The notes beneath the pieces are model-generated. The model made no database searches and was not told the DNA's origin. It worked only from the letters and a program-made list of their open reading frames with translations. The position numbers and the translations under genes are program-made. DNA of 46,182 nt from Dehalococcoidia bacterium (lineage in GTDB: Bacteria; Chloroflexota; Dehalococcoidia; Lucifugimonadales; Lucifugimonadaceae), in contig CAUZJA010000001.1 of the NCBI GenBank assembly GCA_963579925.1, forward strand, positions 1 to 46,182, written 5' to 3'. Shown in pieces: positions 21,315 through 38,475 of this stretch. Position 1 is the stretch's first letter; every line of letters starts with the position of its first letter.

Positions 21315-22412
21315 CTAGAGGAATCTCGAGGCGGCGAACTCAGGCGGAACTGAATCCCTATTTTCCATCACGCCGCCGCCAATCCACTCGGCAATGATGT
21401 GGGAGTAGAGGATGCCTTTACTGCCTGCACCGTTGGCAACGTACAGCCCATCATCAACCTCGCCCACTACGGGCAGGCCATCGGCTGACGTCGGCCGTAG
21501 ACACGCCGTGTGCTGCTCAATGACGGCTGACTCAAGGGCAGGAGCAAGCTCTAGTGCACCCGCAAGAATGGACTCACGCGCCGATGCTGATGCCGTCTCG
21601 TCGAAGCCAGCTTCTTCGTCCGTTGTGCCTATCCACACGCGGCCGTCTGGCTTGCGAGCGATATATGGCCGGCCGTTGACCACCCGATGACTGAAATCAT
21701 CGCAGGGGAACGCCAGACGAATAATTTCGCCCTTCACCGGGCGAATTGGCAAATTCGGAATACCCGCAATTTCGTTGTTTCCCGCCCACGGCCCCGAGCA
21801 GATGATCCTCACCGGCGCGCTGATCACTGAACCAGACTCCAGCATCACTTCGCCGGGCGTTGCGAGCGACACAACATTGCCACTGCGCATCACGCCGCCA
21901 TGACGCTCAAACGCCGTTGCCAGCGCCAGAGTGATCTTGTAGCTATCGACTTCATAGTGACTGAGATGACGCACTCCACCAATGATATTTGGCGTTAGGT
22001 TAGGCTCCAATTCAAGTATGGATTCACCTGAAAGTCTCTCAACAGGTAAGCCTTCTGACTCCCACCAATCGGCGTTCTGATGGATATCTTTCAAACCAGC
22101 TGCCTTGGTGGAGACATCGATTGATCGTGATGGTCGAAACTCGGTATCGATATCTGATTCAGACTCGATTTCCGGATCCAACTGCTTGTGAAGTTCAATC
22201 GCTTTCTTGGCCACCGCCAGAGCTGGCCCCGGGATCCCGGGGCCAAAGGTCGCGTATAGCCCTCCGTAAGCATTTCCAGAGGCATGGCTGGCAATGCCGT
22301 CGCGCTCAATCAACTCAACTGACAGACCGGATTTCGCAAGGCGATAGGCGATGGCGCAACCGATAACTCCCCCACCGACTACAGCAACGTCACAAGTCGA
22401 TGCTGCGCTCAT
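21315..22412 (-). CDS. FAD-dependent oxidoreductase (DAO / glycine-D-amino-acid oxidase family)
   Basis: DVAVVGGGVIGCAIAYRLAKSG dinucleotide motif. 365 aa. 4-nt overlap with the upstream amidohydrolase gene. Confidence 0.9.
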   Translation of the reverse strand: MSAASTCDVAVVGGGVIGCAIAYRLAKSGLSVELIERDGIASHASGNAYGGLYATFGPGIPGPALAVAKKAIELHKQLDPEIESESDIDTEFRPSRSIDVSTKAAGLKDIHQNADWWESEGLPVERLSGESILELEPNLTPNIIGGVRHLSHYEVDSYKITLALATAFERHGGVMRSGNVVSLATPGEVMLESGSVISAPVRIICSGPWAGNNEIAGIPNLPIRPVKGEIIRLAFPCDDFSHRVVNGRPYIARKPDGRVWIGTTDEEAGFDETASASARESILAGALELAPALESAVIEQHTACLRPTSADGLPVVGEVDDGLYVANGAGSKGILYSHIIAEWIGGGVMENRDSVPPEFAASRFL

Positions 22413-23671
22413 TTGACCTGCCGCTGTACCACTTCGCCCGCCTGGAACACGTCTCGCACGTTCCAGAGCGCTGGCATGCCCTGCAGCGGGTCGCCGCCAG
22501 CTACCAGGATGTCAGCCTGCCGACCGACCTCCAGTGAGCCTGAGTCACCGTCCGCACCAATTGATGCCGCACTCCAGGCGGTGCCGGACAGCAGCGCATC
22601 TCCGTTCGAAAGACCCGCCTCGGTGAGCATCTCCATCTCGTATACAAACTCACCCGGCGCGTAGTGGCCCCATGGGGAGTCAGAACCAGCAACCATCTTC
22701 ACGCCCTGACCGATCATCTCGCCAACGGCTTTGACTCTGGCGTCGAGTCCTCGGTACTGATCGTCCAGCGCCAACTGCTCGTCTTTGCTGAACGCTCCCT
22801 CTGACTTCCGGTCTTCTGTGGCCCTGATAGCGGCCCGGCGAACGTGCAGCGTGGGGTTGACCCAGGCATTCGCCTCGATGAGACGCTCGATCAGGTCCGG
22901 GCGCTCGACTGTCGTGCCGTCGGGCTCGTTGAACTCGCAGTGGATGATCATGTCTACTTCTGCATCCAGGCAGTTCTGCACGCCTTGAGCAGATGTGCAG
23001 TGCGCCGCAGTGAGCACACCGTGGTTGTGCGCCTCTTCCGTGATGGCCAGCAGCTCTGTGACCGTAAATGACGCGATGTTCGGGTCTGAAGTTCGCGTCG
23101 AGCCGCCGGTGGCCGTGATCTTGATGTAGTCGGCGCCTTCTTTGAGAAGCTGGCGAACCTCGGTCCGTGCTTCCCATGGGCCGTTCACTTCCGAACCCCA
23201 GTAGCCCATGTGCCCGCCTGTAATCGCCAGCGGGCGCCCGCAGATGACCATCTTGGGGCCAACGGCCAGTCCGCGCCGTATCCCTTCCTTCAGATTGATC
23301 GTGGTGCTTCCGGCCGAGCCGTTCTCCCGAATTGTGGTCACACCGGAATGGAGGATGGTGCGGGCGTTCTTGGCCGCCTGCAGGAGCAGGATCTGATGAT
23401 CTTCCTTCGATATCTCATCACCGGGTGTTCCATCGCCGGGCGCACAGAGATGGGTGTGACAATCGACCAGTCCCGGAAGAATCGTCGCGTCACCGTAGTC
23501 AATTTCCCTGACCGATGCGCCATCTGGAGCGCTGACATCGGCCTGACGACCCATGGCGGCGATCTCATCACCAGAGATGAGCAGGGCAGCGCCATCGATA
23601 GTCGGCCCGTTCGACGCGTCGATGAGACGGTCGGCCTTGAGAAGGGTGTAATCGTGAGTCGGCTCGGCCAT
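22409..23671 (-). CDS. Amidohydrolase-family metal-dependent hydrolase (paralogue of 8116-9375)
   Basis: LVDCHTHL motif. ATG at 23671 has AGGGGA 5 nt upstream and is preferred over the ORF-track start at 23734. Confidence 0.9.
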   Translation of the reverse strand: MAEPTHDYTLLKADRLIDASNGPTIDGAALLISGDEIAAMGRQADVSAPDGASVREIDYGDATILPGLVDCHTHLCAPGDGTPGDEISKEDHQILLLQAAKNARTILHSGVTTIRENGSAGSTTINLKEGIRRGLAVGPKMVICGRPLAITGGHMGYWGSEVNGPWEARTEVRQLLKEGADYIKITATGGSTRTSDPNIASFTVTELLAITEEAHNHGVLTAAHCTSAQGVQNCLDAEVDMIIHCEFNEPDGTTVERPDLIERLIEANAWVNPTLHVRRAAIRATEDRKSEGAFSKDEQLALDDQYRGLDARVKAVGEMIGQGVKMVAGSDSPWGHYAPGEFVYEMEMLTEAGLSNGDALLSGTAWSAASIGADGDSGSLEVGRQADILVAGGDPLQGMPALWNVRDVFQAGEVVQRQVK

Positions 23672-23887
23672 ATCTGTCCCCTGATTAATCCCGCTTAGGC
23701 CGCCGAAGTTAACGCCGCGATGGAGCTGTGTCAATCATTACCCGTACAAATCGCGATTCTCACGGCACCTGCGGTAGCGGCGGGTCTAAGACCCGCTCCG
23801 GCGCGCGCACAGAGGCATCGCTCGATAAACGCTGTCTTCACGTCGAAGAGCGTGTCACGGACCCGCCGCTACCGAGAGAAAAGCGAC

Positions 23888-25438
23888 TTAGACAGGCAGG
23901 CGCACCGTAAAACGCGTGCCAGTGCCATCCGCGTGTGCTGGAGACTCGGCGGTTACCGTTCCGCCGTGCGCTTCAACCAACTGCTTCACGATGGTCAATC
24001 CCAGCCCTGCACCGCCTGTGGTCCGATTGCGTGACACGTCAACCCGGTACAGACGATCGAACACGTGGCGAACATCCTCGGCCGGGATGCCACGTCCGGT
24101 ATCGGTGACCGCCATGACGACATCACCGTTGTCTGTAGCGACTGATACGTCGATGCTCCCATGATCTGGCGTGTAGTTGATGGCATTCTCAACCAGATTG
24201 GCCAGAACTTGCCGCATGCGCGTCGTGTCCAGTTGGAGCGATGGCAGATTCGGCTCCTGGTACAGAGACAGGCCAATTCCATGCTCGGAAGCCCGCGGCT
24301 TGAACGAGTCGACCGTGAGGTCGGCCAGATCGCCGAGGTCGGTATCCAGCTTCTCCATGCTTATGGAGCCAGCCTCAACCATTGCGATGAGCCGCAAGTC
24401 TTCCACCAGCTGGTTCAAATGCAGCACCTGGCTGTGGAGGGAGTTGATCGTGTCGGTGTCCGGCTCCACTAGCCCGTCGTTTATCGCCTCAAGATAGCCC
24501 TGAAGGTTGGATAGGGGAGTGCGGAGTTCGTGCGCTACGTCTGCGGTCATCGTGCGCCGAATTGATTCGGCGTCTTCGAGTTGCGTTGCCATGTCGTTGA
24601 ACGTGTGGCTCAACAGGCCAACTTCATCACGACTGCTGACTGGAACTCGCTGTGACAGTTCGCCACGACCCAGCGCACCGGCGGCGCGAGTGAGGGAGTG
24701 CACCGGTGCGAGGGCCTGGCGGGTGGTTAGTGAGATTACGAATACACCCGCAGCGGCTGCGGCCAGACCGGCCCACATGAGTGACTTGTTGAATGACGCG
24801 GCGAGCCGGGAGAGTTGTGGTTCAAACAGCTCTTCGGGGCTCTCAAGTTCTTCGATCAAGGCAGGGGGAGGGGAGCCGTCGCCCCTGGACGGGCGACCCA
24901 GACGACTTTCGGATGTCTGGGTACTAGCTTGCACGAAGCTGAAATCATCGCCATCAATCGCGCCATTGGCCACCACATAGGGGTTGGCGTTGAAAAGGTT
25001 GCGCGGGATGGGGAATGATGACTCAAACAGGATCTGCCCCCGAACACTACCGCCGATAATGATGGGCCTGCGCGTTACGGTGGGGCCGCTGAAGAAGGTC
25101 TCTATCCGTAACTCACCAGTTCCGTAGTTGTGAGACCCGGCAATCATTCGACCATGCTGATCGATCACTGCGATTTTCCAGCCGAATAGTTCAGCGGCGT
25201 TCTTGAGCGCCGGCTCTAAGAGAGTCATCTGCGGCTCTTCGTCGATCTCTTCGTACGCCTCTGCGACCACGTTCTCAAGACGAGAGACGCGAGCGGCCGC
25301 TGTGTCCTCTTCAAATCGGTTCAACTCTTGCTGTGTTGCGTACGACGCGTAAGCGCCAACTCCCGCGAGGGATAGCGCCAGCACGGAGATGAAGCCGATT
25401 ACAAGGCGGAACTGAAGGCTGTGCAGGAACTTAGACAT
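23888..25438 (-). CDS. Sensor histidine kinase (2 TM, ~200-aa extracytoplasmic domain, HAMP, HisKA, HATPase_c)
   Basis: H-box ADVAHELRTPLSNL, G1 DTGRGI and G2 GGAGLGL. The ATG at 25438 overlaps the response-regulator stop (GATGTCTAA). Confidence 0.9.
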   Translation of the reverse strand: MSKFLHSLQFRLVIGFISVLALSLAGVGAYASYATQQELNRFEEDTAAARVSRLENVVAEAYEEIDEEPQMTLLEPALKNAAELFGWKIAVIDQHGRMIAGSHNYGTGELRIETFFSGPTVTRRPIIIGGSVRGQILFESSFPIPRNLFNANPYVVANGAIDGDDFSFVQASTQTSESRLGRPSRGDGSPPPALIEELESPEELFEPQLSRLAASFNKSLMWAGLAAAAAGVFVISLTTRQALAPVHSLTRAAGALGRGELSQRVPVSSRDEVGLLSHTFNDMATQLEDAESIRRTMTADVAHELRTPLSNLQGYLEAINDGLVEPDTDTINSLHSQVLHLNQLVEDLRLIAMVEAGSISMEKLDTDLGDLADLTVDSFKPRASEHGIGLSLYQEPNLPSLQLDTTRMRQVLANLVENAINYTPDHGSIDVSVATDNGDVVMAVTDTGRGIPAEDVRHVFDRLYRVDVSRNRTTGGAGLGLTIVKQLVEAHGGTVTAESPAHADGTGTRFTVRLPV

Positions 25439-26189
25439 CACCGAAGCGGTAGCCGACTCCATAAATTGTGGAAATAAATCGTTGTCCGTCTGCCTCGCGC
25501 TCTATTTTGCGCCGCAGGTTGGATACGTGTGTGTCCAGCGTTCGGTCGAACCCTTCGAAGTCGTATCCAAACACACGCTCGATGATCCGCTCGCGAGGAT
25601 GAACCTGACCGGGTGCGCGCATGAAGTGGACCAGCAAGTTGAACTCCGTTGGCGTCAACTTGACGGAGGTATCGCCAACCTTCACCACCCTGGCATCGAC
25701 CTTGACGGTCAACTCACCGTAAGTGAGTACGTCCTGCTCTTCTTCAGCGGCACCAGAGGCCACAGAAGAGTCATCGGTGCGCCTCAATACGGCTCGAACA
25801 CGTGCTGCGAGCTCGCGGGGACTGAACGGCTTCGTCATATAGTCGTCAGCGCCGTAATCCAGGCCCGAAAGCTTGTCTGCTTCATCGACCCTGGCTGTGA
25901 GCATGATCACGGGAACTTTGTTATCCTCCGCACGCAGTCGGCGGCAGATCTCCAGGCCATCCATGCCGGGCAGCATGATGTCCAGGACCATCAGGTCAGG
26001 ATCGGTATCCTGCGCCAGCTTCAGCCCCTCAGTTCCGTTGTGGGTCACCGTCACATCGTGGCCATCACGGGCCAGGTAGAGGCGTGATATCTCTGCGGCA
26101 TGCTCATCATCTTCAACGATGAGGATGGACTTTCCGGAGACTACAGTCGTTCCAGATGGGCCAGTTGTAGCCCCAGATGTAGAAGTCAT
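25431..26189 (-). CDS. OmpR-family response regulator
   Basis: ILIVEDDE...MLDIMLPGMDG...MTKPF receiver domain. Winged-helix C-terminus ending YGVGYRFGDV. Confidence 0.95.
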   Translation of the reverse strand: MTSTSGATTGPSGTTVVSGKSILIVEDDEHAAEISRLYLARDGHDVTVTHNGTEGLKLAQDTDPDLMVLDIMLPGMDGLEICRRLRAEDNKVPVIMLTARVDEADKLSGLDYGADDYMTKPFSPRELAARVRAVLRRTDDSSVASGAAEEEQDVLTYGELTVKVDARVVKVGDTSVKLTPTEFNLLVHFMRAPGQVHPRERIIERVFGYDFEGFDRTLDTHVSNLRRKIEREADGQRFISTIYGVGYRFGDV

Positions 26190-26212: not shown

Positions 26213-27310
26213 TTATGCCGCCCGATCAAGAATCGGGGTACCGGTTGAATCATCGTCATCGTGTTCAGCAGGAGGGTCGCCGAATTCGAAGTGGAACGGG
26301 TCGCCATCGCCAAAATTGAACTCAAACCGACCGTTGCCGTCGAACTCACCTAGCTGCTCTTCAATCCGTTCGCGAAGCTCCTCAGGTGAGAGGCCGCGTA
26401 GTTCACCGAGATCTGGCAAATGAGGGAACTCGCCACCACTGAACTCGAATCGGAACGGGTGATCGCTATCGCCAAACCGAGGGAACTCAAACTCGAACGA
26501 GTCATTGTCGCCGCCGAACCCTTCAAAGCCGGGTATCTTCTCCATCAGCTTCGGGATTGTGCGCAGTCCGCCAGAGTCACCTTCAAAGAAATACTTTTCT
26601 ATCGATGGAAGACCAAATCGGAGGGCACCGGGCATCAGCCCGTCAACGGCCTCGGGTCGGCCCTCCCACCACTCTCGCAGTTCGATCGCCTGCGCTTCAT
26701 CAATGATGCCCGCCTCGACCAGACCATCCGCCGTTGGCGGCAAACGGTCTTCGTCGTCGGCTGCGCGATCGGTCTGGATGCGCAGGAATTCAATCGCCTC
26801 GGCAACACCAAGGTCCAGTAGAGATTCAGGGAACTCGTCGAGCCACGTGTTGATCGTCTCGCGATCTTCTTCAGACACGTCGCCGTGGATCAGTGCGCCC
26901 GTGATAAGTGGTTTACCGATGCGGATCACGCTGCGAAATGTTGGACCTTCACCGTCGAGCAGTTCTCGGAGGGTGGCTGCGCTGATGGTTCCAATCGACT
27001 CCGGAATGGTGTCGAGCCATTCCTCAATCTCAGCCTGCTCTTCATCACTCAATTTGCCGCTTGCGACGAGGTCAGCCAGAAGCGAGTCGACTTTTTCGTC
27101 GGCCAGTTCAGCGCCAGCCTGCTCGAAAGCGTCTTTCAGGTCGGTTGGGTCGATGCCAAGTAGCTCCGCCGTGCGTTCAAAGAGCCTGTCTTTACCGCTG
27201 TCGCCACTGCCAGTGAGTGCCTGGGCAGCAACAACGCCACCAGACACGGACGCGACGATAACCACAAGCAGTGGAATGAAAATCATCCTGCGGCGAAGGG
27301 TCTGGATCAT
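26213..27310 (-). CDS. Membrane-anchored/exported acidic repeat protein of unknown function
   Basis: 365 aa with N-terminal TM/signal anchor MIFIPLLVVIVASVSGGVVAA. Three helical repeats (SDEEQAEIEEWLDTIPES / SEEDRETINTWLDEFPES / DEAQAIELREWWEGRPEA). Two C-terminal FEFxF..FGDxD.PFxFEF repeats. 23 nt upstream of the RR gene on the same strand. Confidence 0.75.
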   Translation of the reverse strand: MIQTLRRRMIFIPLLVVIVASVSGGVVAAQALTGSGDSGKDRLFERTAELLGIDPTDLKDAFEQAGAELADEKVDSLLADLVASGKLSDEEQAEIEEWLDTIPESIGTISAATLRELLDGEGPTFRSVIRIGKPLITGALIHGDVSEEDRETINTWLDEFPESLLDLGVAEAIEFLRIQTDRAADDEDRLPPTADGLVEAGIIDEAQAIELREWWEGRPEAVDGLMPGALRFGLPSIEKYFFEGDSGGLRTIPKLMEKIPGFEGFGGDNDSFEFEFPRFGDSDHPFRFEFSGGEFPHLPDLGELRGLSPEELRERIEEQLGEFDGNGRFEFNFGDGDPFHFEFGDPPAEHDDDDSTGTPILDRAA

Positions 27311-27444: not shown

Positions 27445-28668
27445 CTAGATCTCTTCCGGGCACCAGGGCAGACGTTCCGTTCGGAACATTGAGTCCGCCA
27501 ATGCGAGTTGCTCGTTGGAAGACGATTCTGCGCGAAGAGCCGCCACCAGCGTGCTGAACGAAACGCCGCCCATGTAGGCCGCGCTCAGGGCATCTGCTCT
27601 CAAAGTGGCATCGGGATTCGCATCGACTTCAGTAACGGTGGCTACACCTGCCTCAACAGACAGCCGGTAAGTGCCATCGTTCCATGGGCAGAACTCATCA
27701 TTTACCCTGATCGTGAGTTCCCCATCCGACGAATATGTTCTTTCCCCAAGCGCTGCCTTCACATCAACCAGTCGAAGCCACATGCCGTCCAATTCAACGC
27801 GGCGAAGCCTTCGGGAATCGTTGACGCGCCACTGCAGCGGGTCATCTGGCGTCATGTTCCAGTATGAGATCGTCTGCACAAGGTCGATGCCAAACAAGTA
27901 GCGCCATAGGCTTTTGTGAGCATCGTCGGTGGTCCAGATTAGCTCTTCAACTGCAAGTTCCATCTCATCTGGCTCGATGCGATAGACCACGTAGCCTTCG
28001 GGTACACCGTTGTTGAAGTAGACCACCCACATGCGATCAGATCCGCCATGTCGTTCATGCTCCGGGGAGGCGATGGTGAAGTCCCACCAGTTCTCCCGCC
28101 GCTCCAACATCCCAGCCCACGATTTACGCGCCGTATCCCACACGTGCTGCATGTGCGGACGTGCTTCTTTTCCGGACATCATCCTGACGGTTCCAAGCGC
28201 GTCGGTCTCCCCGCGACGGAACTTAGCGTCAACCTTCTCAATCGACGTATTCTGCGTTGTCGTCGCCACTCCAAAGCCAAAACGACCGTAGATCAGCGCT
28301 TCGGACGCCCAGAGCATCGAGAACGTCTCACCACGCTCTCTGGACTGTGCAAGCTGATTGGTCATCATTGACGTGAGAATGCCGCGCCTGCGGTGTGAAG
28401 GCTTCACGGTGACATACGCGATGCCGCTGCATGTGCCATTTCCACCGCCGGGAAGCGAGATGGGCAACGTTTGGGCGCCAATGGTGCCAACGATCTGTGC
28501 ACCATCGAACACGGCGAACGACCTGTCGCACTCCATGATGCGGGTTTCCGCCTCAATGCGACTATCCGGCGTGGAGTTTCCAAACCCAAGGTCTATTGCC
28601 TGAACAAAGGTAGGAATTTCAGGCTCTGTGATCGCTCTGAGCGTCAGGCCGTCTGGGAGAGTTGCCAT
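27445..28668 (-). CDS. Eis-like GNAT N-acetyltransferase (double GNAT + SCP2-like C-terminus), paralogue 1
   Basis: 407 aa with VTVKPSHRRRGILTSMM (AcCoA loop) and ASEALIYGRFGFGVA. The start abuts the stop of paralogue 2 (0-nt gap). Confidence 0.8.
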   Translation of the reverse strand: MATLPDGLTLRAITEPEIPTFVQAIDLGFGNSTPDSRIEAETRIMECDRSFAVFDGAQIVGTIGAQTLPISLPGGGNGTCSGIAYVTVKPSHRRRGILTSMMTNQLAQSRERGETFSMLWASEALIYGRFGFGVATTTQNTSIEKVDAKFRRGETDALGTVRMMSGKEARPHMQHVWDTARKSWAGMLERRENWWDFTIASPEHERHGGSDRMWVVYFNNGVPEGYVVYRIEPDEMELAVEELIWTTDDAHKSLWRYLFGIDLVQTISYWNMTPDDPLQWRVNDSRRLRRVELDGMWLRLVDVKAALGERTYSSDGELTIRVNDEFCPWNDGTYRLSVEAGVATVTEVDANPDATLRADALSAAYMGGVSFSTLVAALRAESSSNEQLALADSMFRTERLPWCPEEI

Positions 28669-29889
28669 TTAGAAGTCCACCACATTCCACGGAGCCTTTT
28701 GCGTCACGAACATGGCATCAGCCTTGCTGAGCGAGCCGACAGCGTTCTCATCAATCAGTCCTGAGCGACCAAGAACGCTCGGCCGGGTTCCGCCAAACGT
28801 AATTGAGCCAAGAATCGCCACGTTCATCGTGAGTTCAGGTGACTTATCAGTAGGTACGCATGTAGCACCATCCCCGGAACCGGAGAGCAAGTATGTCCCT
28901 GCCGCATAGCCGCCTGACTCATCAATCACCTTGATCGACAGGTCTCCAGTTGCGGAATACGCTCTCGATTCGAGCACCGTTGGAACATCAAGAATTCTTG
29001 ACCAGATGCAGTCCTGCGGAATGCGTTCAAGCGCTCGAGTGTCTTGGAGCATCCACGGCAGAGCATCATCCACTGGTCGATCGCCAACTTGTATCTCACC
29101 GACAAGGTCAATTCCGAAGCAGTAGTTCCAGAGGGCAAGTTCAGCGTCTCGGTCAACGCCCACCAGTTCAATAATCCTCATGTTGTCGCGTCCATCGCCC
29201 GTCCGGCGATAGTTCACGTAACCCTCAGGTGAGTCGTTCACATAGTAAATCCCGGTGTGGAGCTCACTGTCGTCATTTCGGTCCCACTCAGGATCGATGC
29301 CGAGCCATTTCCACTCATTGGAACTCCGAATGATCCAGCCAGGACGAGTTGAGGCGACCTTTTCAAACACCTCTCGGGCGTCGGATATTCCGTCCTTGGC
29401 AGACTTATACCGCATCTCGCCGGCCGGTTTTGACGTGATGGCGAGCGCCGTCCGGTTACGAGAAATCTTGTAGCGCTCCCTGAACAGCGCTACGCCGTAG
29501 CCGAACCGGCCGTAGATAGCTGGCTCGGAGGCATAGAGCGATGCCATCGCATGTCCGCGCTCAACTGCCTCCGCCATCGCTGCGGGCATCATCTTTGACA
29601 AAATGCCGCGCCGACGATGGGTTGGGGACACAGTCACCATTGTGATCCCGGCGGTTGAAATTCTGGCTTTTGAATTGACGGTCTCGTAGTCAATGTACGC
29701 CAACGATCCGACGATCTGATCGCCATCGAATGCAGCGAATGGGTAAGTCGCTTCCACGATGTTAGTGAAGTGCGCTAGTTGCTCATCCAGAAACGTGCCT
29801 GCTCCACCAAAACCAATACTGATTGCCCTGCTGAATGCCGGCAACTGGTCTGGCGATGGACGTCTGATTTCGATCTTTTGTTTGTTCAT
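28669..29889 (-). CDS. Eis-like GNAT N-acetyltransferase, paralogue 2
   Basis: 406 aa from ATG 29889 with VTVSPTHRRRGILSKMM and ASEPAIYGRFGYGVA. Ends ...WNVVDF. 2-nt gap to paralogue 3. Confidence 0.8.
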   Translation of the reverse strand: MNKQKIEIRRPSPDQLPAFSRAISIGFGGAGTFLDEQLAHFTNIVEATYPFAAFDGDQIVGSLAYIDYETVNSKARISTAGITMVTVSPTHRRRGILSKMMPAAMAEAVERGHAMASLYASEPAIYGRFGYGVALFRERYKISRNRTALAITSKPAGEMRYKSAKDGISDAREVFEKVASTRPGWIIRSSNEWKWLGIDPEWDRNDDSELHTGIYYVNDSPEGYVNYRRTGDGRDNMRIIELVGVDRDAELALWNYCFGIDLVGEIQVGDRPVDDALPWMLQDTRALERIPQDCIWSRILDVPTVLESRAYSATGDLSIKVIDESGGYAAGTYLLSGSGDGATCVPTDKSPELTMNVAILGSITFGGTRPSVLGRSGLIDENAVGSLSKADAMFVTQKAPWNVVDF

Positions 29890-29891
29890 AA

Positions 29892-31115
29892 TTAAAAGTA
29901 GATGTGAGGCCATGGGGCCACGTTTGATTCAAATAGTCGTTGCAAGCGGGCGACGCCATCGCCAGCATGATCCTCAATCTGACCAGCGGCAAACATGGAA
30001 TAAGCACTCACGCCGCCAAGATAGAGCGAGCCAAGGTCTTCAACCCTCAGAGTTACCTCTGGAGCGCCCGGAGTTGGGCTGCAGACCGCTCCTTCATCGC
30101 CAGAGTCCAGCAGATGAGTGCCGTTGTTCCACGGGCACGATTCATCAATCACGCCGATCGCGATAGTATCCTCAACGCCATAGAGCGCTGCGCTCAGCGC
30201 CTCATCGACGTCAACCAATCTCAATGAGATGCCATCCGAAATCGTGCGGGTGACTGCCCGTCGATCTTTCAGCCACCAATGGAGTGGTTCATCCGGCGGA
30301 CGCCTTACCTCTAGTTTTCTAGTGAGATCAATATCCAGAAAGTACCGCCACAACCGCGCAGAGGCGCGGATAGTGGCCGCGACCATATCGTTGATCTTGA
30401 CGGTTCCGCTTGGGTTTCCGCTGGCCCAATCGTTTTCAACTTGATATGACGCGAAGCCCTCGCAACGGCCATCAAAGTAACAGCCCACCTGCAGTGTCTT
30501 TAGTTGCTGGCCTGGTGGGGATATTTTTCCTCTCAGTTCTCTGATCCAGAACGGGTCGGAGCGCGTGATAATTCCTGGCGTCAGATGCATGGCTTGAGTG
30601 TGAACTGGCGTGAACTCTTTGATGGCATCTTCCCAATCGACGAACCTCATATCCCCTTCCGCGCCAACGCCATCATGGAAATCTGAACGAGTGGTGTCGA
30701 TCTCCAGATCCTCGTTCCACGTCGCAACACCCCAGCCGAATCGACCGTAGATTGGCGCCTCCATGGCGAATAGCGCTGCGAGCGACTCACCCCGCTCCCG
30801 GTAGTCCGCAAGCTGGCGCGTAACCATGCCACGCATGATTCCCTGTCGCCGATGCGTTGGGCGCACCGCAACCCAGCTCAGACCGCCGCAAGGCAGGATA
30901 GCGCCGCCGGGCACGGACATGGAGTGCGAATACGACATCGATTGCCCAACCAGTTGATCGCCATCAAACGCGACAACAGAGCGATCAAACTCCCAGGCGT
31001 TCTTGCCCCAGTACTCCGCCCATTCGGGGATCGGCAGAGTTCCCTCCGCCACGCGGTTGAGTTCGTCAGCCAGCGGATGCTCTTCTGGCTTCAGTTTTCG
31101 ATATTCAAGACTCAT
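29892..31115 (-). CDS. Eis-like GNAT N-acetyltransferase, paralogue 3
   Basis: 407 aa with VAVRPTHRRQGIMRGMV and AMEAPIYGRFGWGVA. Ends ...WPHIYF. Confidence 0.8.
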   Translation of the reverse strand: MSLEYRKLKPEEHPLADELNRVAEGTLPIPEWAEYWGKNAWEFDRSVVAFDGDQLVGQSMSYSHSMSVPGGAILPCGGLSWVAVRPTHRRQGIMRGMVTRQLADYRERGESLAALFAMEAPIYGRFGWGVATWNEDLEIDTTRSDFHDGVGAEGDMRFVDWEDAIKEFTPVHTQAMHLTPGIITRSDPFWIRELRGKISPPGQQLKTLQVGCYFDGRCEGFASYQVENDWASGNPSGTVKINDMVAATIRASARLWRYFLDIDLTRKLEVRRPPDEPLHWWLKDRRAVTRTISDGISLRLVDVDEALSAALYGVEDTIAIGVIDESCPWNNGTHLLDSGDEGAVCSPTPGAPEVTLRVEDLGSLYLGGVSAYSMFAAGQIEDHAGDGVARLQRLFESNVAPWPHIYF

Positions 31116-31131
31116 TCAGCTCTCATTAACC

Positions 31132-32355
31132 TCAAATTTGGGGCTCAATAGCCGGACACCATGGCATGGACGACCAGCCAAACATGCTATCTGCGGTGGC
31201 TACCGCTGAGGATGTGTTCCCAGCGATGCGACCCGATGCAGCAAGGACAGATGGTTTCACACCGCCAAGGTAAATTGCACCAAGGTCTTCCACCGTCATG
31301 GTCAGGTCTGGAAGTTCCGTGCTGGAAGTGCAGGTCGCTCCAAGTGGGCCGCCTTCCAACCGGAATGTACCGGCACCCCAGCCACCCCACTCGTCAATCA
31401 CCTCAATAGTTAGCCCGCCATCATGTGCATAGCGTCTCGCCTCCAGCGCGGCGGGGACATCGAGAATGCGATTCCATACGCTATCGATGGACAGTCGTTC
31501 GAGACGTCTCGGGTTGCGAAGTAGCCACGGTAATGGGTCATCAATCGGACGGTTGCCCGCGGTGATGGATTCGATCACATCGATGCCGAACAGATATTCC
31601 CACAACGCCCGATGCGCCGCTGGCGTTGTAGTGACCATCTCCTCCACGACCAGCGTCTTCTTCGGAATCCAATTCTGCCAGTTGCCTGAGCTGTTGTAGA
31701 TCACATAGCCCAGCGTTTCGCCAGCTTCCTGGTAGGCGGCAATCAACATCTTCTTGATCTCGACAGGCCAGAAGCGGAGATCCCAGTAGGTCTGATCTCT
31801 CTCATAGGTTCCAAGGCGAGTGCGAGGCGCCAACGCATATGCACTGGGAATGACTTGTTTTGCGGTTTCAAGATCAACCAGCACTACCTCACCGGGGATG
31901 TCATATTCATCACGGAAAACAGCGTGCGGCTGCTGAATCTTGAAGCGCTCAAAGTGCGAAGCAATGCCGTAGCCGAACCGCCCATAGATAGAACTCTCAG
32001 AAGCGTGCAGCGTGGCGGTTGGTTCGCCGATCTCTTTGACCTGATCCATGTGCTGCCGCATCATCTCGGTCAGGATGCCACGTCGTCGGTGAGTGGGGCG
32101 CGTCGTTACGAATGAGAGGCCCGCTGAGTTGAGTTTGCCGCCGGGCACGGTCATTGGTGTTGGGAAGCTGCACAGTGTGCCAACGATCTGAGATCCATCA
32201 AACGCTGCCACAGATCGCTCCGGCTCGAACACGGGTCCGAACCGATCAAACGCATCCTCCTGACCGGCGCCCGTGTCTGTATACGCCGTAATTTCGGCGC
32301 GCAGAAAGTCTGGGAACTCTTCCTGTGTGACGGCGCGGTATGTAACTGGTCTCAT
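31132..32355 (-). CDS. Eis-like GNAT N-acetyltransferase, paralogue 4
   Basis: 407 aa with VTTRPTHRRRGILTEMM and ASESSIYGRFGYGIA. 16-nt gap to paralogue 3. Confidence 0.8.
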   Translation of the reverse strand: MRPVTYRAVTQEEFPDFLRAEITAYTDTGAGQEDAFDRFGPVFEPERSVAAFDGSQIVGTLCSFPTPMTVPGGKLNSAGLSFVTTRPTHRRRGILTEMMRQHMDQVKEIGEPTATLHASESSIYGRFGYGIASHFERFKIQQPHAVFRDEYDIPGEVVLVDLETAKQVIPSAYALAPRTRLGTYERDQTYWDLRFWPVEIKKMLIAAYQEAGETLGYVIYNSSGNWQNWIPKKTLVVEEMVTTTPAAHRALWEYLFGIDVIESITAGNRPIDDPLPWLLRNPRRLERLSIDSVWNRILDVPAALEARRYAHDGGLTIEVIDEWGGWGAGTFRLEGGPLGATCTSSTELPDLTMTVEDLGAIYLGGVKPSVLAASGRIAGNTSSAVATADSMFGWSSMPWCPAIEPQI

Positions 32356-32389: not shown

Positions 32390-33130
32390 TTACTCGACGT
32401 CTACGCGGGGCGGCGGGTTCAACACCGGGTGGAGAGCCAAAAGTCGCGACTTCTTGCCCGTCGGGTTGAATATGCCGTGTCGAATCGTTGGCTCGCAGAG
32501 GAACAGATCGCCCGCTTTAAGCGTGATGCTGTCCTTCTTATCGTAGACCGCGCCAAGCTCGCCTTCGATGCAGAACATCGACTCTTCGTGTGCCGGGTGG
32601 AAGTGATTAGGAGCTATCGCACCGGGGTTAAACGTGAGCTCTGAGAAATATGAAGACTCTGCACCAAGGAAATCGCCAACCATGTCATATCGTGACACGC
32701 CAGGCATGAACTCAAATGGCTTCACCTTGTCCCGGAAAAACACGCCAACGTCTGGTGCGCCGTCAATCCACTCTGGTTCAGTCGCCACTTCTCGCTCAGG
32801 TGAAGGGGAGGGGTACATAACGATGAAGCGCGCAGGCGTTTCGCCTACGTTCGCAAGCCCGTGACCGAGGCCACGACGAGCAACGATACAGTCACCGGCC
32901 TTCGCTCGGAACCTGTGACCATCCAGCCTGAACTCAACCTCGCCAGAAGCAACGTAGATGTTCTCTTCGGTATTGGGATGAATGTGGTAGACCGACGTAA
33001 CGCCAGGATCCAACGTGAGATCGCCAACCGTCATCATCTTTGAGCCGTGCTCACCGCCCATCATGTCGTACATGTTGGTGCCGGGCATGGGAGATACTTG
33101 CGGCTGGTGGCTACGTCGTCGAATTGGCAT
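32390..33130 (-). CDS. Bicupin (two cupin domains) protein
   Basis: Two cupin cores: SVYHIHPNTEENIYVASGEVEF and APNHFHPAHEESMFCIEGEL. 34 nt upstream of Eis paralogue 4. The start is uncertain (M1 or M15). Confidence 0.8.
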   Translation of the reverse strand: MPIRRRSHQPQVSPMPGTNMYDMMGGEHGSKMMTVGDLTLDPGVTSVYHIHPNTEENIYVASGEVEFRLDGHRFRAKAGDCIVARRGLGHGLANVGETPARFIVMYPSPSPEREVATEPEWIDGAPDVGVFFRDKVKPFEFMPGVSRYDMVGDFLGAESSYFSELTFNPGAIAPNHFHPAHEESMFCIEGELGAVYDKKDSITLKAGDLFLCEPTIRHGIFNPTGKKSRLLALHPVLNPPPRVDVE

Positions 33131-33187: not shown

Positions 33188-33221
33188 CAGCTAGGGAGCG
33201 AGCAACGCCTCTCCCTAGCTG
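33188..33221. other. Perfect 11-bp-stem hairpin CAGCTAGGGAG-N12-CTCCCTAGCTG
   Basis: Read directly. It lies between the PAT-like pseudogene tail and the bicupin gene. No T-tract, so terminator function is uncertain. Confidence 0.5.
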
Positions 33222-33816
33222 ACTGCTGCGGCGAATTCTTCATCATGTGTCGCCTCTGACATTGGCATCGGTGGCTCAGGGTGATCCGGCGGCGGAATTA
33301 GTTCCAATTGCCAGTATCCAATGTCCACCCACCGCCCTGATTTGAAGCCAACGTTTTTTGGGTCCCGATGTACTTTGAACCGAAAGACTCGAACATTCGG
33401 ACGCTTGCAGGATTGGGCAGGGCAATCGCACCGAAGACCTGAACGAATCTCTGGACACGGAGCGCAGCAAGCATCGAACTCACCAATGCCCTGCCAATAT
33501 GGACTCAGCGATAACCATCTGCCAGGTATGTGCTCAATTCAACCGCCCAACGATACGCTGCGCGTTCCTTGAATCTGCGGGCATAGCAGTAGCCCACGAT
33601 GGCGCCGTCAATCTCACAGACGAGCCACGGAGCAAACAGAAGCGTGTCTTTGATTCGCGCTGCGATCTCGGCCTCACTTGGAACCACTTCTTCGAACGAG
33701 ATCATCGTGTCTCGCACGATGGGACCGTAGATGTCGACAATGGCCGCCGCGTCAGAAATTCCAGCAAGGCGTATTAGGACAGTCGATGACTTTTCCATGG
33801 TGTCACTAATCTTCAA
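33215..33816 (-). pseudogene. Phosphinothricin-acetyltransferase-like (PAT) GNAT gene with at least 2 frameshifts
   Basis: Frame a: MKISDT...IVGYCYARRFKERAAYRWAVELSTYLADGYR*. Frame b: VHIGRALVSSMLAALRVQRFVQVFGAIALPNPASVRMFESFG. Frame c: FKVHRDPKNVGFKSGRWVDIGYWQLEL. Together these reconstruct a full PAT-type GNAT. Confidence 0.7.
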
Positions 33817-35284
33817 CCCTCATACCGGGTTTTGTAACGATTGCCAACAGTAACCCAACCAGCGTGAAACCTGTCACAGTGAAGTATGCAATCTTCCAGC
33901 CGTCTATGAACGCTTGCGAGGCCCCCACAACGGTGTCGATTTCGTTGAGCGGAATATCAAACCCCTGTGAGGTCATCACGCCCACCACAATAGCGGCCGC
34001 AATAGCCTGACCCACCACATTGCCAACGTTTCGGGCCAGATTTGTCAGCGCTCCCACCACGCCAAACTGAGCGCTTGAAACGGCATTCAGAATCACCGTG
34101 TTGTTCGGCACACTCCACATTCCCATTGCCAATCCATTGATGAAAAGTACAAGCATCACAATCCAGAATGGCGTATCTGCGTCCATGAAAGCGAAATATG
34201 CCGCAGTGGCGAATAACGCCACGAAACCGAGAATTGTGAAGGGGCGTGCGCCAAATCTATCGGAAAGCCTTCCACCGCTCTGTGCTGCGATTCCCATTCC
34301 CATGGACGCCAGGAACAGGATTCCACCGGTCGCGCCTTCGCCCAATCCTCGGAAGCTAATCAAGTACACAGGCATCATGAATCGGGTAGCGGTAGTACCC
34401 ATGAAACCAATGAGTCGTGTGCTCACCGCCATGGTGAACACGGTGTTCTTGAACATCCGAAGCTCAAGCATTGGTGCCGGGTTGCCAAGCTCCCACTTGA
34501 TGAATCCAGCCATAAGTACAGCGAATCCAATGAACCCACCAATGATCAGCGGAGATAGCCAGCCCACTCCAAGCGGATTGTTGATCGTCAGTACCAGCAA
34601 CACCACAGCGGAGGCGGAGAGGAACGCCCCCAGCCAGTCGTAAGGAGGCCGCTGCTCCTGCGTTCGTTGGCTCACTCGATCCTCGTCCAATACGACGAGA
34701 CCGACGACAAACGCGATGGCAATTGGGATCGAGATCATGATGAAAAGTGATTGCCACGGAAACCACTGCAGCAGAAGTCCGGCGACTACCGGTCCTGTGG
34801 CCCCACCCAGTGCAACCGCGGTGGTCTGACTGCCAATCGCCTTCCCTCGTTCGTTAGCGGGAAACACGGACACAACCATCGCAGTCCCAACGGACTGGCC
34901 CATCGCGTTGCCTACGGCCATGACCACTCTCGCCACAATCAGTATGCCGAACGTTGGCGCCGCGGCCGCAAACAGCGCACCACCGCCAAACAGCGACAGG
35001 CCAATGAGATGAATACGCTTCCGGCCAATGATGTCCGCAACACGCCCCATCGGCAGCATGATGGCGCTGATAGTTAGCGCCTGAGCGATCACTACCCATG
35101 AGACCGCTCCAAGGCTGACACCAAAGTCATCTGCGATGGCAGACAGCGCAACGAACACCATGGACATGCTCATCACCATCGTGACGAACGAAACTCCAAT
35201 GGCGGCGAACGCCTTCCATTTGTAGTCACTGGGGTCGTCTTCAGGATCCCACACGACGGGCGTTGATGAAGGAGCGTCGCTCAA
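33806..35284 (-). CDS. MFS transporter, DHA2 (14-TMS drug:H+ antiporter) family, paralogue 1
   Basis: 492 aa with motif A GRVADIIGRKR and 14 hydrophobic segments. TTG start. Confidence 0.9.
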   Translation of the reverse strand: MSDAPSSTPVVWDPEDDPSDYKWKAFAAIGVSFVTMVMSMSMVFVALSAIADDFGVSLGAVSWVVIAQALTISAIMLPMGRVADIIGRKRIHLIGLSLFGGGALFAAAAPTFGILIVARVVMAVGNAMGQSVGTAMVVSVFPANERGKAIGSQTTAVALGGATGPVVAGLLLQWFPWQSLFIMISIPIAIAFVVGLVVLDEDRVSQRTQEQRPPYDWLGAFLSASAVVLLVLTINNPLGVGWLSPLIIGGFIGFAVLMAGFIKWELGNPAPMLELRMFKNTVFTMAVSTRLIGFMGTTATRFMMPVYLISFRGLGEGATGGILFLASMGMGIAAQSGGRLSDRFGARPFTILGFVALFATAAYFAFMDADTPFWIVMLVLFINGLAMGMWSVPNNTVILNAVSSAQFGVVGALTNLARNVGNVVGQAIAAAIVVGVMTSQGFDIPLNEIDTVVGASQAFIDGWKIAYFTVTGFTLVGLLLAIVTKPGMRVED

Positions 35285-35290
35285 CGGCGC

Positions 35291-35390
35291 CCGGCTACAT
35301 GGCAGGGCGAGAGCCCGGCTTCATGAGACCAGGGTCCGGCTTCATGAGACCAGGGTCCGGCTTCATGAGACCAGGGTCCGGCTTCATGAG
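35291..35390. repeat. Tandem 21-bp repeat (ccggcttcatgagaccagggt), 3 perfect + 1 partial + 1 degenerate copy
   Basis: Perfect copies at 35315-35335, 35336-35356 and 35357-35377. Partial copy at 35378-35390. Degenerate copy at 35291-35314. It lies immediately upstream of the MFS1 start codon. Confidence 0.95.
35295..35387 (-). CDS. Possible leader uORF encoded by the 21-bp repeat (MKPDPGL x3 + MKPGSRPAM)
   Basis: Each 21-bp unit equals 7 in-frame codons starting with ATG on the minus strand. The TAG stop lies 10 nt upstream of the TTG start of MFS1. No obvious SD. A related single unit (ATGAGGCCCGCTCTCTGTGAGTGA, 36899-36922) overlaps the GTG start of MFS2. Confidence 0.3.
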   Translation of the reverse strand: MKPDPGLMKPDPGLMKPDPGLMKPGSRPAM

Positions 35391-35421
35391 AAATGTGTTG
35401 GTCCACTAGCATTTTCCGATT

Positions 35422-36906
35422 CTACTCGTCGGGCGCAACCGCCTGCGGTTTGGTGATCCATGCTAGCGCTCCACCGATCAGAGAGAAGGCCACAACGCCC
35501 ACGTAGGCAACTTTCCATCCATTGAGGAACGCGACACCTGCACCCGGCGTATCGGCGATCTCACTCAGCGGGATATCGAACCCCTCGGCGGCCATAATTC
35601 CCACTATGATCGCTGATGCCAGGGCCTGTCCCGTCACATTGCCAATATTGCGCGTCAGGTTGGTCAACGCGCTGGTGATCCCAAGTCTGGAACGCGGCAC
35701 CGTTCCCATGATTATTGAGTTGTTTGGAACGTTCCACGTCCCCATGCCAAGGCCGTTCCCCAACATGATCACCATGATTAGCCAGATTGGCGTCTCTCCA
35801 TCGATAAACGCAAACGCGAGCGCAGTAACGAGAATGACACCGAATCCGGCGACCGCGAATCTGCGTGGTCCATACCTGTCCGCCCATCGCCCACTCATTT
35901 GCGCCGATACAGCCATACCCAGTGCACTCATGAACAGCACTATTCCGGCAATTCCCTCGCTCAAGTCACGGAAGCTGATCAGGAAAATAGGCATCATGAA
36001 GAAGGTGGCCGTAGTGCCCATGAAGCCAATCCAACGCGTTGCCACCGCCAACCTGAAGATCCGGTCTTGAAACATCCGCAGGTCAATCATCGGTGAAGGG
36101 TTGCGCAACTCCCAGAAGATGAACAGCACTAGAAGAACAACTCCCAAGATGCCTCCAGCGAAGAGCATGGGCGATAGCCAGTCCACCGCGAATGGGTTGT
36201 TGATCGTAACGACGAGGACGATCACCGCTAGCCCCGAGAGAAGCGCACCAATCATGTCGAATTTCGGGCGCTTTCCTTGCGTTTGTTGGCTTACCCGAGC
36301 TTCATCCAGGATGAAGTAGCCCCAAACAAATGCAATGGATGTCATGACTGCCATCACATAGAACAGGGATTGCCAGGCGAAGAACTGCAGCAATATCCCG
36401 CCGACAATTGGCCCGGCAGCGGATCCAACAGCGACCGCAGTTGTCTGGCTGCCAATCGCCTTTCCCCGCTCATGAGTTGGGAACACAGAGATGACCATCG
36501 CAGTTCCAACTGCCTGCCCCGCCGAGCTGCCAACCGCCATGACGATTCGAGCCACAATCAATATGCCGAGGGTTGGCGATAGCGCTGCGAATATGGCCCC
36601 ACCAATGAAGATCAACTGGCCAATCAGATGGAATCGCTTGCGGCCAATGATGTCGGCCACGCGTCCGAGAGGCAGCATGATGGCGCTGATGGTCAGCGAC
36701 TGCGAAACCACAACCCAGGTGACCGCTCGGAGAGTGACGCCAAAGTCATCCGCAATTGCAGACAGCGAAACAAACACGATGGAAAAGCTCATCACCATCG
36801 TGAACATAGAAAGGCCTATCGCAGTGAAGGCTTTCCATTTGTAATTCTTGTCTGACTCCGTATCCGGATCCCAGACAACCGGGGGCGTATTGGCGGTCTC
36901 ACTCAC
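35422..36906 (-). CDS. MFS transporter, DHA2 family, paralogue 2
   Basis: 494 aa, collinear with paralogue 1 (VVWDPD..., GRVADIIGRKRFHLIG). GTG start. Confidence 0.9.
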   Translation of the reverse strand: MSETANTPPVVWDPDTESDKNYKWKAFTAIGLSMFTMVMSFSIVFVSLSAIADDFGVTLRAVTWVVVSQSLTISAIMLPLGRVADIIGRKRFHLIGQLIFIGGAIFAALSPTLGILIVARIVMAVGSSAGQAVGTAMVISVFPTHERGKAIGSQTTAVAVGSAAGPIVGGILLQFFAWQSLFYVMAVMTSIAFVWGYFILDEARVSQQTQGKRPKFDMIGALLSGLAVIVLVVTINNPFAVDWLSPMLFAGGILGVVLLVLFIFWELRNPSPMIDLRMFQDRIFRLAVATRWIGFMGTTATFFMMPIFLISFRDLSEGIAGIVLFMSALGMAVSAQMSGRWADRYGPRRFAVAGFGVILVTALAFAFIDGETPIWLIMVIMLGNGLGMGTWNVPNNSIIMGTVPRSRLGITSALTNLTRNIGNVTGQALASAIIVGIMAAEGFDIPLSEIADTPGAGVAFLNGWKVAYVGVVAFSLIGGALAWITKPQAVAPDE

Positions 36907-36973
36907 AGAGAGCGGGCCTCATTTGGGGGGTGAATGTCCGGTCGCATCCGCAGATGGTACTCCCGCGCCATCG

Positions 36974-38475
36974 CTATTTCGAATCCGCGGCGCTTTCACT
37001 CTCGCCATCACCGGGCCGAGTCATGATTGCTGCGATGGTGGCCAGTACCCCCACTGCCACGACAACCAGGTAAGCGATTCTCCAGCCATCGATAAACGCA
37101 TCTGACGCGCCAGGAGTTGATTTGATTTCACTGAGAGGGATATCGAAACCCGCGTTCACCATCACACCCACCACCACGGCGGCGACAACGGCCTGACCAA
37201 CAACGCTGCCTACGTTCCGAACCAGGTTCACGAATGCGCTGACCACCCCGTAAGCCGAACGTGGTACCGACCCCATGGTTGCGCTGTTGTTGGGCACGTT
37301 CCAGATGCCTATTCCCATACCATTGGCAAACAACACCAGCATGATCACGCATACAGGAGTGGTGCGGGTGAAAAACGAGAAACCAATGGACGTGAACAGC
37401 AGCAGCACAAAGCCAAGCACTGTCAGCCACCGGTGTCCGAACTTATCGGAAAGCCTCCCGCTCAGCTGCGCTGCAATTCCCAATCCCAACGCACCAACAA
37501 ACAGGATGCCGCCTGTTTTGCCTTCACTCATTTCCCTGAAACTCAGCAGATAGATCGGCATCATGAAGAACGTGGCCGTCACCGTCATGAATCCCAGATA
37601 GCGCGCTGCTATGGCGTACTTGAACACCGTGATCTTGAATAGCCGCAGATCAAGCATTGGAGCGGGAGTACGCAACTCCCACTTCACAAACCAGACAAAT
37701 ATCCCCACCGTCAGCACCGCTCCACCAATGATCAGTGGCGATAGCCAGCCAACTGCAAGCGGATTGTTGATGGTCAAGACCAGCACGATCATGCCTGTGG
37801 CCGAAAGGACCGCACCAAGCCAGTCGTAGCGCGGTCGATCTGCACCGGTTTGACCGAGCCGATGCGCTTATCGTCGAGAATGAAGTATCCCCATATGAAT
37901 GCGATGGTAATGGGAATCGCCATAAAGACGAAAAGCGACCGCCACGAAAATATCTGCAGCAACAATCCAGCAGCTATAGGCCCCGCCGCGCTGCCTACCG
38001 CAACCGCAGTGGTCTGACCGCCGAGACCCTTTCCCCGTTCACTGGTCGGAAATACCGAGATGATGATCGCCGTTCCCACCGCCTGGCCCATGGAGTTCCC
38101 AACCGCCATCACAATTCGAGCCACGATGAGAATCGGCAGGGTAGGGGAGAGCGCCGCAAAGATCGCACCGCCACCAAACAGAGCCATCCCCACCAGGTGG
38201 AACTTCTTCCGACCAACAATGTCTGCCACACGCCCCAGCGGCAGCATCAACGCGGCAATGGTGAGCGATTGCGCGATCACAACCCACGATACCGCCCGCA
38301 GCGTCACGCCAAAGTCATCCGCAATCGAAGATAGCGCCAGGAAAACGATGGAGAAGCTCATCACCATCGTGACCAGAGCTATTCCAGCAGCGGAAAACGC
38401 CATCCACTTGTAGTTATCGTCAGGGTTGGCGTCAGGATCCCAGACAACTTCAGTAGACGCTGGCTTATCGCTCAT
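36974..38475 (-). pseudogene. MFS transporter, DHA2 family, paralogue 3, split by one frameshift
   Basis: The N-terminal ORF (37789-38475) ends ...FILDDKRIGSVKPVQIDRATTGLV.... Shifting one nt near 37838-37850 gives RPRYDWLGAVLSATGMIVLVLTINNP, which continues into ORF 36974-37792 and is collinear with paralogues 1 and 2. Confidence 0.75.

Follow-up and report, generated by a model that had tools for sequence, protein, structure and literature searches.

Eis proteins have been studied almost only as single-gene factors of aminoglycoside resistance or virulence in mycobacteria. The described proteins closest to the genes treated here are Eis2 of Mycobacterium abscessus, an aminoglycoside N-acetyltransferase (PDB entries 6RFT and 9MVA), and Eis of M. 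tuberculosis (Mtb; Rv2416c; PDB entries 3R1K, 3RYO and 4JD6). The second M. abscessus paralogue, Eis1, is said not to be adjacent to Eis2. In the PDB, each solved relative of Eis is deposited as a single sequence with 6 chains or a multiple of 6, in agreement with an earlier note on the DNA studied here, made from its letters alone, which described characterised Eis enzymes as homo-hexamers encoded by single genes. We analyzed a 46,182-nucleotide (nt) stretch of a Dehalococcoidia genome (contig CAUZJA010000001.1, positions 1 to 46,182; hereafter the window), in which four intact Eis-family open reading frames (ORFs) of 406-407 amino acids each lie head-to-tail on the minus strand between positions 27445 and 32355:

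31132-32355, minus strand: eisA, predicted Eis-family N-acetyltransferase of 407 amino acids, with its own AGGA Shine-Dalgarno-like motif and the C-terminus PWCPAIEPQI

29892-31115, minus strand: eisB, predicted Eis-family N-acetyltransferase of 407 amino acids, first gene of the B-C-D block, ending in HIYF

28669-29889, minus strand: eisC, predicted Eis-family N-acetyltransferase of 406 amino acids counted from MNKQ, ending in VVDF

27445-28668, minus strand: eisD, predicted Eis-family N-acetyltransferase of 407 amino acids, ending in PEEI

With a probability of roughly 0.55, we interpret this array as a battery of co-transcribed Eis-type N-acetyltransferases, each active by itself and with acceptor pockets that have diversified, located in a variable detoxification and efflux cluster. 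The interpretation is favored by the complete motifs, low ratios of nonsynonymous to synonymous substitution (dN/dS) and group-specific pockets of all copies, by the faster evolution of the Eis genes relative to their neighbors, and by the single-sequence hexamer entries of the solved homologues. Each copy would be an acetyl-CoA-dependent N-acetyltransferase, active separately from the others, with an acceptor-binding pocket of its own, and each would form its own homo-oligomer on the model of the characterised Eis proteins. The four genes would be transcribed together, probably with an upstream bicupin gene. Each enzyme would have its own class of cationic compounds (such as aminoglycoside-like antibiotics, polyamines or peptides) whose primary amines it acetylates, and the acidic isoelectric points of all four proteins (pI 4.9-5.2) fit enzymes that bind cationic amines. 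The array as a whole would be part of a variable cluster of detoxification and export genes in a marine Dehalococcoidia lineage. The earlier note had offered a hetero-oligomeric acetyltransferase and a substrate-diversified battery as alternatives; the evidence leans to the battery and does not decide between the two.

The arrangement described in that note, four tandem ORFs of about 407 amino acids with gaps of 0, 2 and 16 nt, was confirmed. The eisA/eisB junction reads TGA, 16 nt, ATG; eisB/eisC reads TAA, 2 nt, ATG; and eisC/eisD is TAAATG (0 nt). An alternative in-frame ATG for eisC lies upstream at 29913 and would give a protein of 414 amino acids with a 22-nt overlap with eisB. No Shine-Dalgarno motif was found before eisC, the start of which lies 2 nt past the eisB stop. 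The array is far beyond chance. An identical eisD is found on at least 22 metagenome contigs, and the four-gene array is the same on all six of those that were fetched. Among reference genomes the closest is the metagenome-assembled genome (MAG) 'Dehalococcoidia bacterium UBA1151' (Chloroflexota), and one related record carries the label marine metagenome.

Membership of the Eis/UPF0256 family, proposed earlier from motifs, is borne out by Pfam, NCBIfam and PDB matches and by the predicted fold of eisA. All four copies were placed in Eis/GNAT-SCP2 models by hidden Markov model (HMM) searches, rather than in another family. Each matches Acetyltransf_9 (E 1e-26 to 1e-32), Acetyltransf_17 and SCP2_2 of Pfam above gathering scores, and each shows the three-domain architecture, with a GNAT domain at the N-terminus, a GNAT-like domain in the center and an SCP2-like domain at the C-terminus. 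Scores on the NCBIfam model of the Eis-related subfamily, NF002367 (PRK01346.1-4), are 287-368 bits against a cut-off of 259, so that all four pass. None passes the equivalog models for Eis proper, NF002368 and NF002364 (223-282 bits against 576, and 150-163 against 701). By these profile scores the four copies are Eis family members and are not functional equivalogs of mycobacterial Eis. An AlphaFold2 (AF2) structure model, which covers eisA, has a predicted local distance difference test (pLDDT) score of 93.4, with confidence falling to ~69 only over the last seven residues. Its best structural match is M. abscessus Eis2, at a template modeling (TM) score of 0.92, and entries for Mtb and M. 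smegmatis Eis follow at 0.84-0.88. The products of eisB, eisC and eisD are related to the solved Eis entries by very strong sequence E-values.

Eis2 is also the best sequence match (E 3e-61 with eisD, 2e-95 with a four-copy profile). It shares with the window proteins the three domains, the HRRRG acetyl-CoA loop and the IYGRFGYG catalytic segment. However, identity is only ~30-38%, the pocket residues differ, and Eis2 is a single gene in an actinobacterial pathogen, whereas the genes described here form an array in uncultured marine Dehalococcoidia. Similarly, the fold and the catalytic set V85/V87, R92-G95 and Y126 are shared with Mtb Eis, from which the window copies differ in scoring under the equivalog cut-offs, in an eisA C-terminus that is 3 residues longer, and in the pockets of eisB, eisC and eisD.

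Residue positions are given in the numbering of Mtb Eis, applied through PDB alignment. V85, R92, R93, (R/Q)94, G95, Y126, R128, W197 and D292 are kept in all orthologues of all four groups. V87 is Thr in eisA; this substitution and the Gln at R94 in eisB are the two deviations seen in the set formed by the acetyl-CoA strand and loop and the catalytic Tyr. The acetyl-CoA-loop residues and Tyr126 presumably function as they do in Eis. The motif hallmarks listed in the earlier note are thus present overall, with departures from that first description in eisA (V-T-T-R-P for V.V.P) and eisB (AME for ASE and HRRQGI for HRRRGI). As far as sequence can tell, no copy looks like a degenerate scaffold.

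We take positions 13, 24, 26, 28, 36, 40, 63, 65, 84, 119 and 401 to line the aminoglycoside/inhibitor pocket of Mtb Eis. These positions are largely fixed inside each orthologue group and different between groups, for example:

Position 36: F in eisA, W in eisB, F or L in eisC, E in eisD

Position 84: F in eisA, W in eisB, M, I, A or V in eisC, Y in eisD

Position 119: H in eisA, F or Y in eisB, Y or I in eisC, W in eisD

The predicted pocket of eisA is aromatic and the most Mtb-like of the four (Y24, D26, F36, F84, H119). That of eisB, also aromatic, has many Trp and Tyr residues (W36, W40, Y65, W84, Y401), that of eisC is made of small and aliphatic residues, and that of eisD is polar and acidic (E36, Q65, Y84, W119, E401).

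The divergence of the copies was examined by pairwise identity and by neighbor-joining (NJ) trees with 100 bootstraps. The earlier note had estimated by eye that the copies were about one-third identical and of ancient divergence. Pairwise identities of eisA-D are 33-40%; A, B, C and D each form an orthologue group with genes of relatives at 100% bootstrap; and the four copies are never monophyletic (0/100 bootstraps). These observations rule out a recent amplification, and by sequence the four copies are ancient paralogues. The NJ bootstrap does not resolve the deeper order among them, with scores of 38-63 for a grouping of A with C. Between orthologues, dN/dS is ~0.08-0.15 for every copy (rough values, with dS saturated), and by this measure all four copies are under purifying selection. 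The fastest-evolving copy is eisC, with 59-60% identity where eisB and eisD show 78-79%. Compared with the related locus L092 (such labels denote related loci throughout), the Eis copies of the window are 49-52% identical, and the bicupin, response regulator and amidohydrolase are 75-81% identical. On these identities the Eis proteins evolve faster than the rest of the locus. Orthologues of eisB were found at 79, 78, 71 and 52% identity, and in each case C and then D come next; a scan of metagenome contigs anchored on eisB gave one locus of 1.8 kb. The B and D lineages are confined to this small clade.

The earlier note treated the four copies as one coupled unit, which is not what the related loci show. 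Their flanking gene order is conserved: major facilitator superfamily (MFS) genes, a GNAT gene resembling phosphinothricin acetyltransferase (PAT), the bicupin, the Eis slot, an acidic secreted protein, a response regulator, a histidine kinase, an amidohydrolase and a DAO-type oxidase. The content of the Eis slot varies. In the window and in L093 it is A-B-C-D, all intact. In the UBA1151-type contigs B-C-D are intact and eisA has both lost 2 bp at about codon 16 and gained a stop in place of Trp394, lesions that are identical in four records from different sources. Because L093 is ~95% identical in DNA to these contigs, yet has an intact eisA, the lesions are recent and polymorphic. In L029, ~1.1 kb of eisA is deleted, leaving its last 38 codons next to an intact B-C-D. 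L092 has no trace of eisA and reads bicupin, B, C, D, with B, C and D at 52, 49 and 50% identity to the window copies. The short contigs L096, L097 and L098/L099 all carry B (partial), C and D. Finally, L094/L095 have a single Eis gene in the same frame, beside the bicupin, with 45% identity to A versus 34-38% to B-D; in L094 it has the A-type extended tail (PWCPAFDPVT), and tree support for its A-orthology is weak (39/100).

The four genes thus do not strictly co-occur: eisA is lost by deletion in L029, disrupted in L088-L091 and missing from L092, and L094 has an A-like gene by itself. In contrast, B-C-D co-occur in the same order in the window, L096, L093/L007, L098, L029, L092 and L097, and are never apart in the lineages recovered; the B-to-C gap ranges from 2 to 18 nt and the C-to-D junction is 0 nt or an overlap. 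Judged by gene content, eisA behaves as an autonomous, dispensable gene in a slot beside the bicupin, and eisB-C-D as an old three-gene block. Such lineage-variable content (A only, B-C-D, deleted A plus B-C-D, broken A plus B-C-D, A-B-C-D) is typical of modular accessory genes. We also considered eisA as a late addition that is now decaying and rejected this, as intact eisA orthologues exist at 75-86% identity, the L093 copy is intact, and an A-like gene (on the weak tree support given above) is the sole Eis in the L094 slot.

An obligate four-subunit complex that includes eisA is contradicted by the independent losses of eisA and the solo occurrence of the A-like gene. A hetero-hexamer built from B, C and D alone, for example B2C2D2, with translational coupling setting the stoichiometry and eisA forming a separate homo-oligomer, is a possibility that we regard as rather unlikely. 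It would account for the constant company and order of B-C-D in every lineage recovered, down to ~50% identity, for junctions that are tight throughout, for the lack of a Shine-Dalgarno motif before eisC, and for the same narrow taxonomic distribution of the B and D lineages. However, few lineages were sampled, and several of the contigs are short. All three proteins keep complete catalytic and acetyl-CoA motifs, so that there is no non-catalytic scaffold among them; their rates are unequal, as seen in the faster divergence of eisC; and every solved Eis relative is homo-oligomeric. Paralogues at 33-35% identity have usually lost the ability to co-assemble, except where selection maintains it. 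The tight coupling on which the earlier note drew is equally found between unrelated genes of the window, with tight or overlapping junctions linking the response regulator to the histidine kinase and the amidohydrolase to the DAO-type oxidase, and spacing by itself thus gives no argument for a complex. More doubtful still is the stronger form of this proposal, that eisB-C-D would be the first Eis-type acetyltransferase known to form a hetero-hexamer, one particle carrying three distinct active-site pockets, with its genes kept as a translationally coupled block for at least as long as 50% sequence divergence takes.

The order and block inheritance of B-C-D, together with their distinct predicted pockets, would also suit copies that act in sequence on one multi-amine substrate, each on a different amine, dividing among them the multi-site acetylation that M. 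tuberculosis Eis reportedly performs as one enzyme. We consider this improbable: genes to make or break down such a substrate are absent from the conserved neighborhood, and the neighbors are lineage-specific rather than general Eis partners. The present data do not set sequential action apart from a simple battery. Equally improbable in our view is that the array is largely redundant, the leftover of an old tandem duplication in a region of fast turnover, with copies drifting to loss and no division of labor. The broken or deleted eisA of close relatives, the pseudogene state of the PAT-like gene and one MFS gene in the window, and the rapid evolution of the Eis genes relative to the rest of the locus are all in keeping with such drift. 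They are countered by dN/dS values of ~0.1 in all copies, by pocket residues conserved inside each group, and by B, C and D being intact in every lineage down to 50% identity, since redundant copies would not last so long.

Several observations weigh against a battery of separate detoxifying enzymes. Three-way group-specific sites make up 4 of the 17 pocket sites versus 29 of 379 elsewhere, a marginal excess (one-sided p = 0.044) with an assumed pocket list, and group-specific sites are distributed over all three domains. A scan for promoters and terminators gave fewer matches than shuffled sequence and none at the junctions, so that the operon is deduced from spacing alone. That B-C-D are never apart and that the C-to-D junction is conserved would also be predicted by a hetero-complex or an obligatory pathway. 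The acetyltransferase function of the four proteins is itself a prediction, and the detoxification role is based on family matches of neighboring genes that fall below threshold.

The C-termini are as the earlier note gave them (eisA ..EPQI, eisB ..HIYF, eisC ..VVDF, eisD ..PEEI), but its division into two copies ending in Phe and two in Ile is a weak one. Among ~100 members of the family in the loci retrieved, 78 have a terminal Phe and the usual ending is PW-x4-Phe-COOH. The tails of eisB and eisC are canonical and that of eisD has the canonical length with a terminal Ile; in B, C and D the tail ends at a fixed distance past a conserved Pro. The L092 orthologue of eisD ends in Phe and that of eisB in Trp. 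The terminal side chain is thus variable, as expected if the backbone carboxylate matters, and we assume a catalytic role for this carboxylate in Eis. The real outlier is eisA, with a tail that runs 3 residues past the family norm. This extension is conserved in L093, the L029 remnant and L094, suggesting a functional variant and not decay. A second variant C-terminus in the Eis family was seen in another Dehalococcoidia lineage, in which the Eis genes of a triple (L081, 8736-12451) and a pair (L079, 2775-5235) entirely lack the conserved C-terminal PW motif and have tails such as ..SVVHDY and ..SVIHEF.

Eis copy number and adjacency were surveyed in the 80 loci of reference genomes with the highest similarity to eisA, the majority of them from Dehalococcoidia and Actinomycetota MAGs. 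At least two adjacent same-strand Eis ORFs, 28-52% identical, occur in 14 of the 80; two loci have three copies, and four copies were found only in the orthologous UBA1151 locus. The Gaiellales/Thermoleophilia have an independently conserved Eis pair, forming two clades at 100% bootstrap each. Tandem loci of other Dehalococcoidia and of Gaiellales/Thermoleophilia (L042, L051, L064, L066, L069, L073, L076, L079, L081) resemble the window array in that their copies are adjacent, on the same strand, divergent and usually closely spaced. They differ from it in being independent duplications of two or three copies with other neighbors. Adjacent old Eis duplicates are thus a recurrent theme, of which four in a row is the extreme and nothing different in kind. 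The earlier note would have given up its proposal had tandem Eis arrays proved both common and characterised; they are common, but we know of none that has been characterised. To our knowledge, a conserved triad with an autonomous fourth copy is likewise an undescribed arrangement. What is new is the occurrence of Eis members in this arrangement, not a mechanism or a kind of system. In two actinobacterial MAGs one member of a tandem Eis pair is frameshifted, or affected by an assembly error (L063, 2878-4075; L085, 11266-12371). Assembly errors aside, loss of one tandem copy thus also occurs outside the Dehalococcoidia.

Three or four ancient paralogues with distinct pockets amount to a natural experiment in how a promiscuous acetyltransferase partitions its substrates. 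Located beside efflux pumps and an antibiotic-type acetyltransferase in an abundant marine lineage, the block offers a ready panel of enzymes for work on specificity, and the array is a clean test of whether Eis paralogues co-assemble.

The genes flanking the array in the window are as follows:

36974-38475, 35422-36906 and 33806-35284, minus strand: three tandem DHA2-type efflux MFS paralogues (33806-38475 overall)

33200-33816, minus strand: PAT/ArsN1-like (phosphinothricin/arsinothricin-type) N-acetyltransferase pseudogene with two in-frame stops and one frameshift

32390-33130, minus strand: bicupin of 246 amino acids with two Cupin_2 domains, 34 nt upstream of eisA

26213-27310, minus strand: acidic signal-anchored protein of 365 amino acids with an N-terminal membrane anchor or signal

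25431-26189, minus strand: OmpR-type response regulator, a conserved downstream neighbor

23888-25462, minus strand: HAMP histidine kinase, a conserved downstream neighbor

21315-23734, minus strand: Amidohydro_1 protein and glycine-oxidase/ThiO-like FAD oxidase, overlapping by 4 nt

In every orthologous locus (L007, L029, L092, L093 and L094), including the single-Eis locus L094, the bicupin directly precedes the Eis slot. It has two His-x-His...Glu...His metal motifs and only distant relatives, among oxalate decarboxylase or quercetinase-type cupins (E ~1e-10). It is probably co-transcribed with the Eis genes, and its constant position may reflect a functional link between the cupin and A-type Eis.

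The upstream neighbors have a flavor of resistance, comprising the three DHA2-efflux-like MFS genes and the PAT/ArsN1-like acetyltransferase, and their decay differs by lineage. In the window the reading frame of the latter is interrupted by stops around codons 98 and 195 and is shifted near codon 148; its orthologue is intact (202 amino acids) in L088, L089 and L093, split into 83 and 115 amino acids in L090, and 166 amino acids long in L091. Some UBA1151-type contigs are among those in which it is split or short, and its decay is thus independent in several populations. Scores of the intact orthologue are 187 bits with the ArsN1-B arsinothricin-resistance model, which has a cut-off of 210, and 123 bits with that for phosphinothricin acetyltransferase. 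The MFS gene at 36974-38475 has a frameshift near 37850-37864 that gives two overlapping ORFs of 228 and 272 amino acids. All six metagenome contigs of this population have the split, and in L029 the gene is one ORF. It may be a pseudogene that has become fixed, or it may encode a transporter that is truly split.

Downstream, the very acidic protein at 26213-27310 had no match in Pfam or NCBIfam. It contains repeated segments resembling E-E-W-L-D-x-x-P-E-S and a C-terminal run of F-E-F-x-F...G-D repeats. In L007, L029, L092, L093 and L094 it always separates the Eis slot from the OmpR/HAMP two-component system, whose sensor it may assist outside the cytoplasm as an accessory or ligand-binding protein. 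The bicupin, the acidic protein and the two-component system were each considered as general Eis partners and rejected, as they co-occur with Eis in the orthologous loci only. In all relatives the amidohydrolase/FAD oxidase pair keeps its syntenic place downstream of the two-component system, and the best match of its Amidohydro_1 protein is a sub-threshold one to an Xaa-Pro dipeptidase model. Together with N-acetyltransferases, this pair bears a faint resemblance to amine or amino-acid catabolism.

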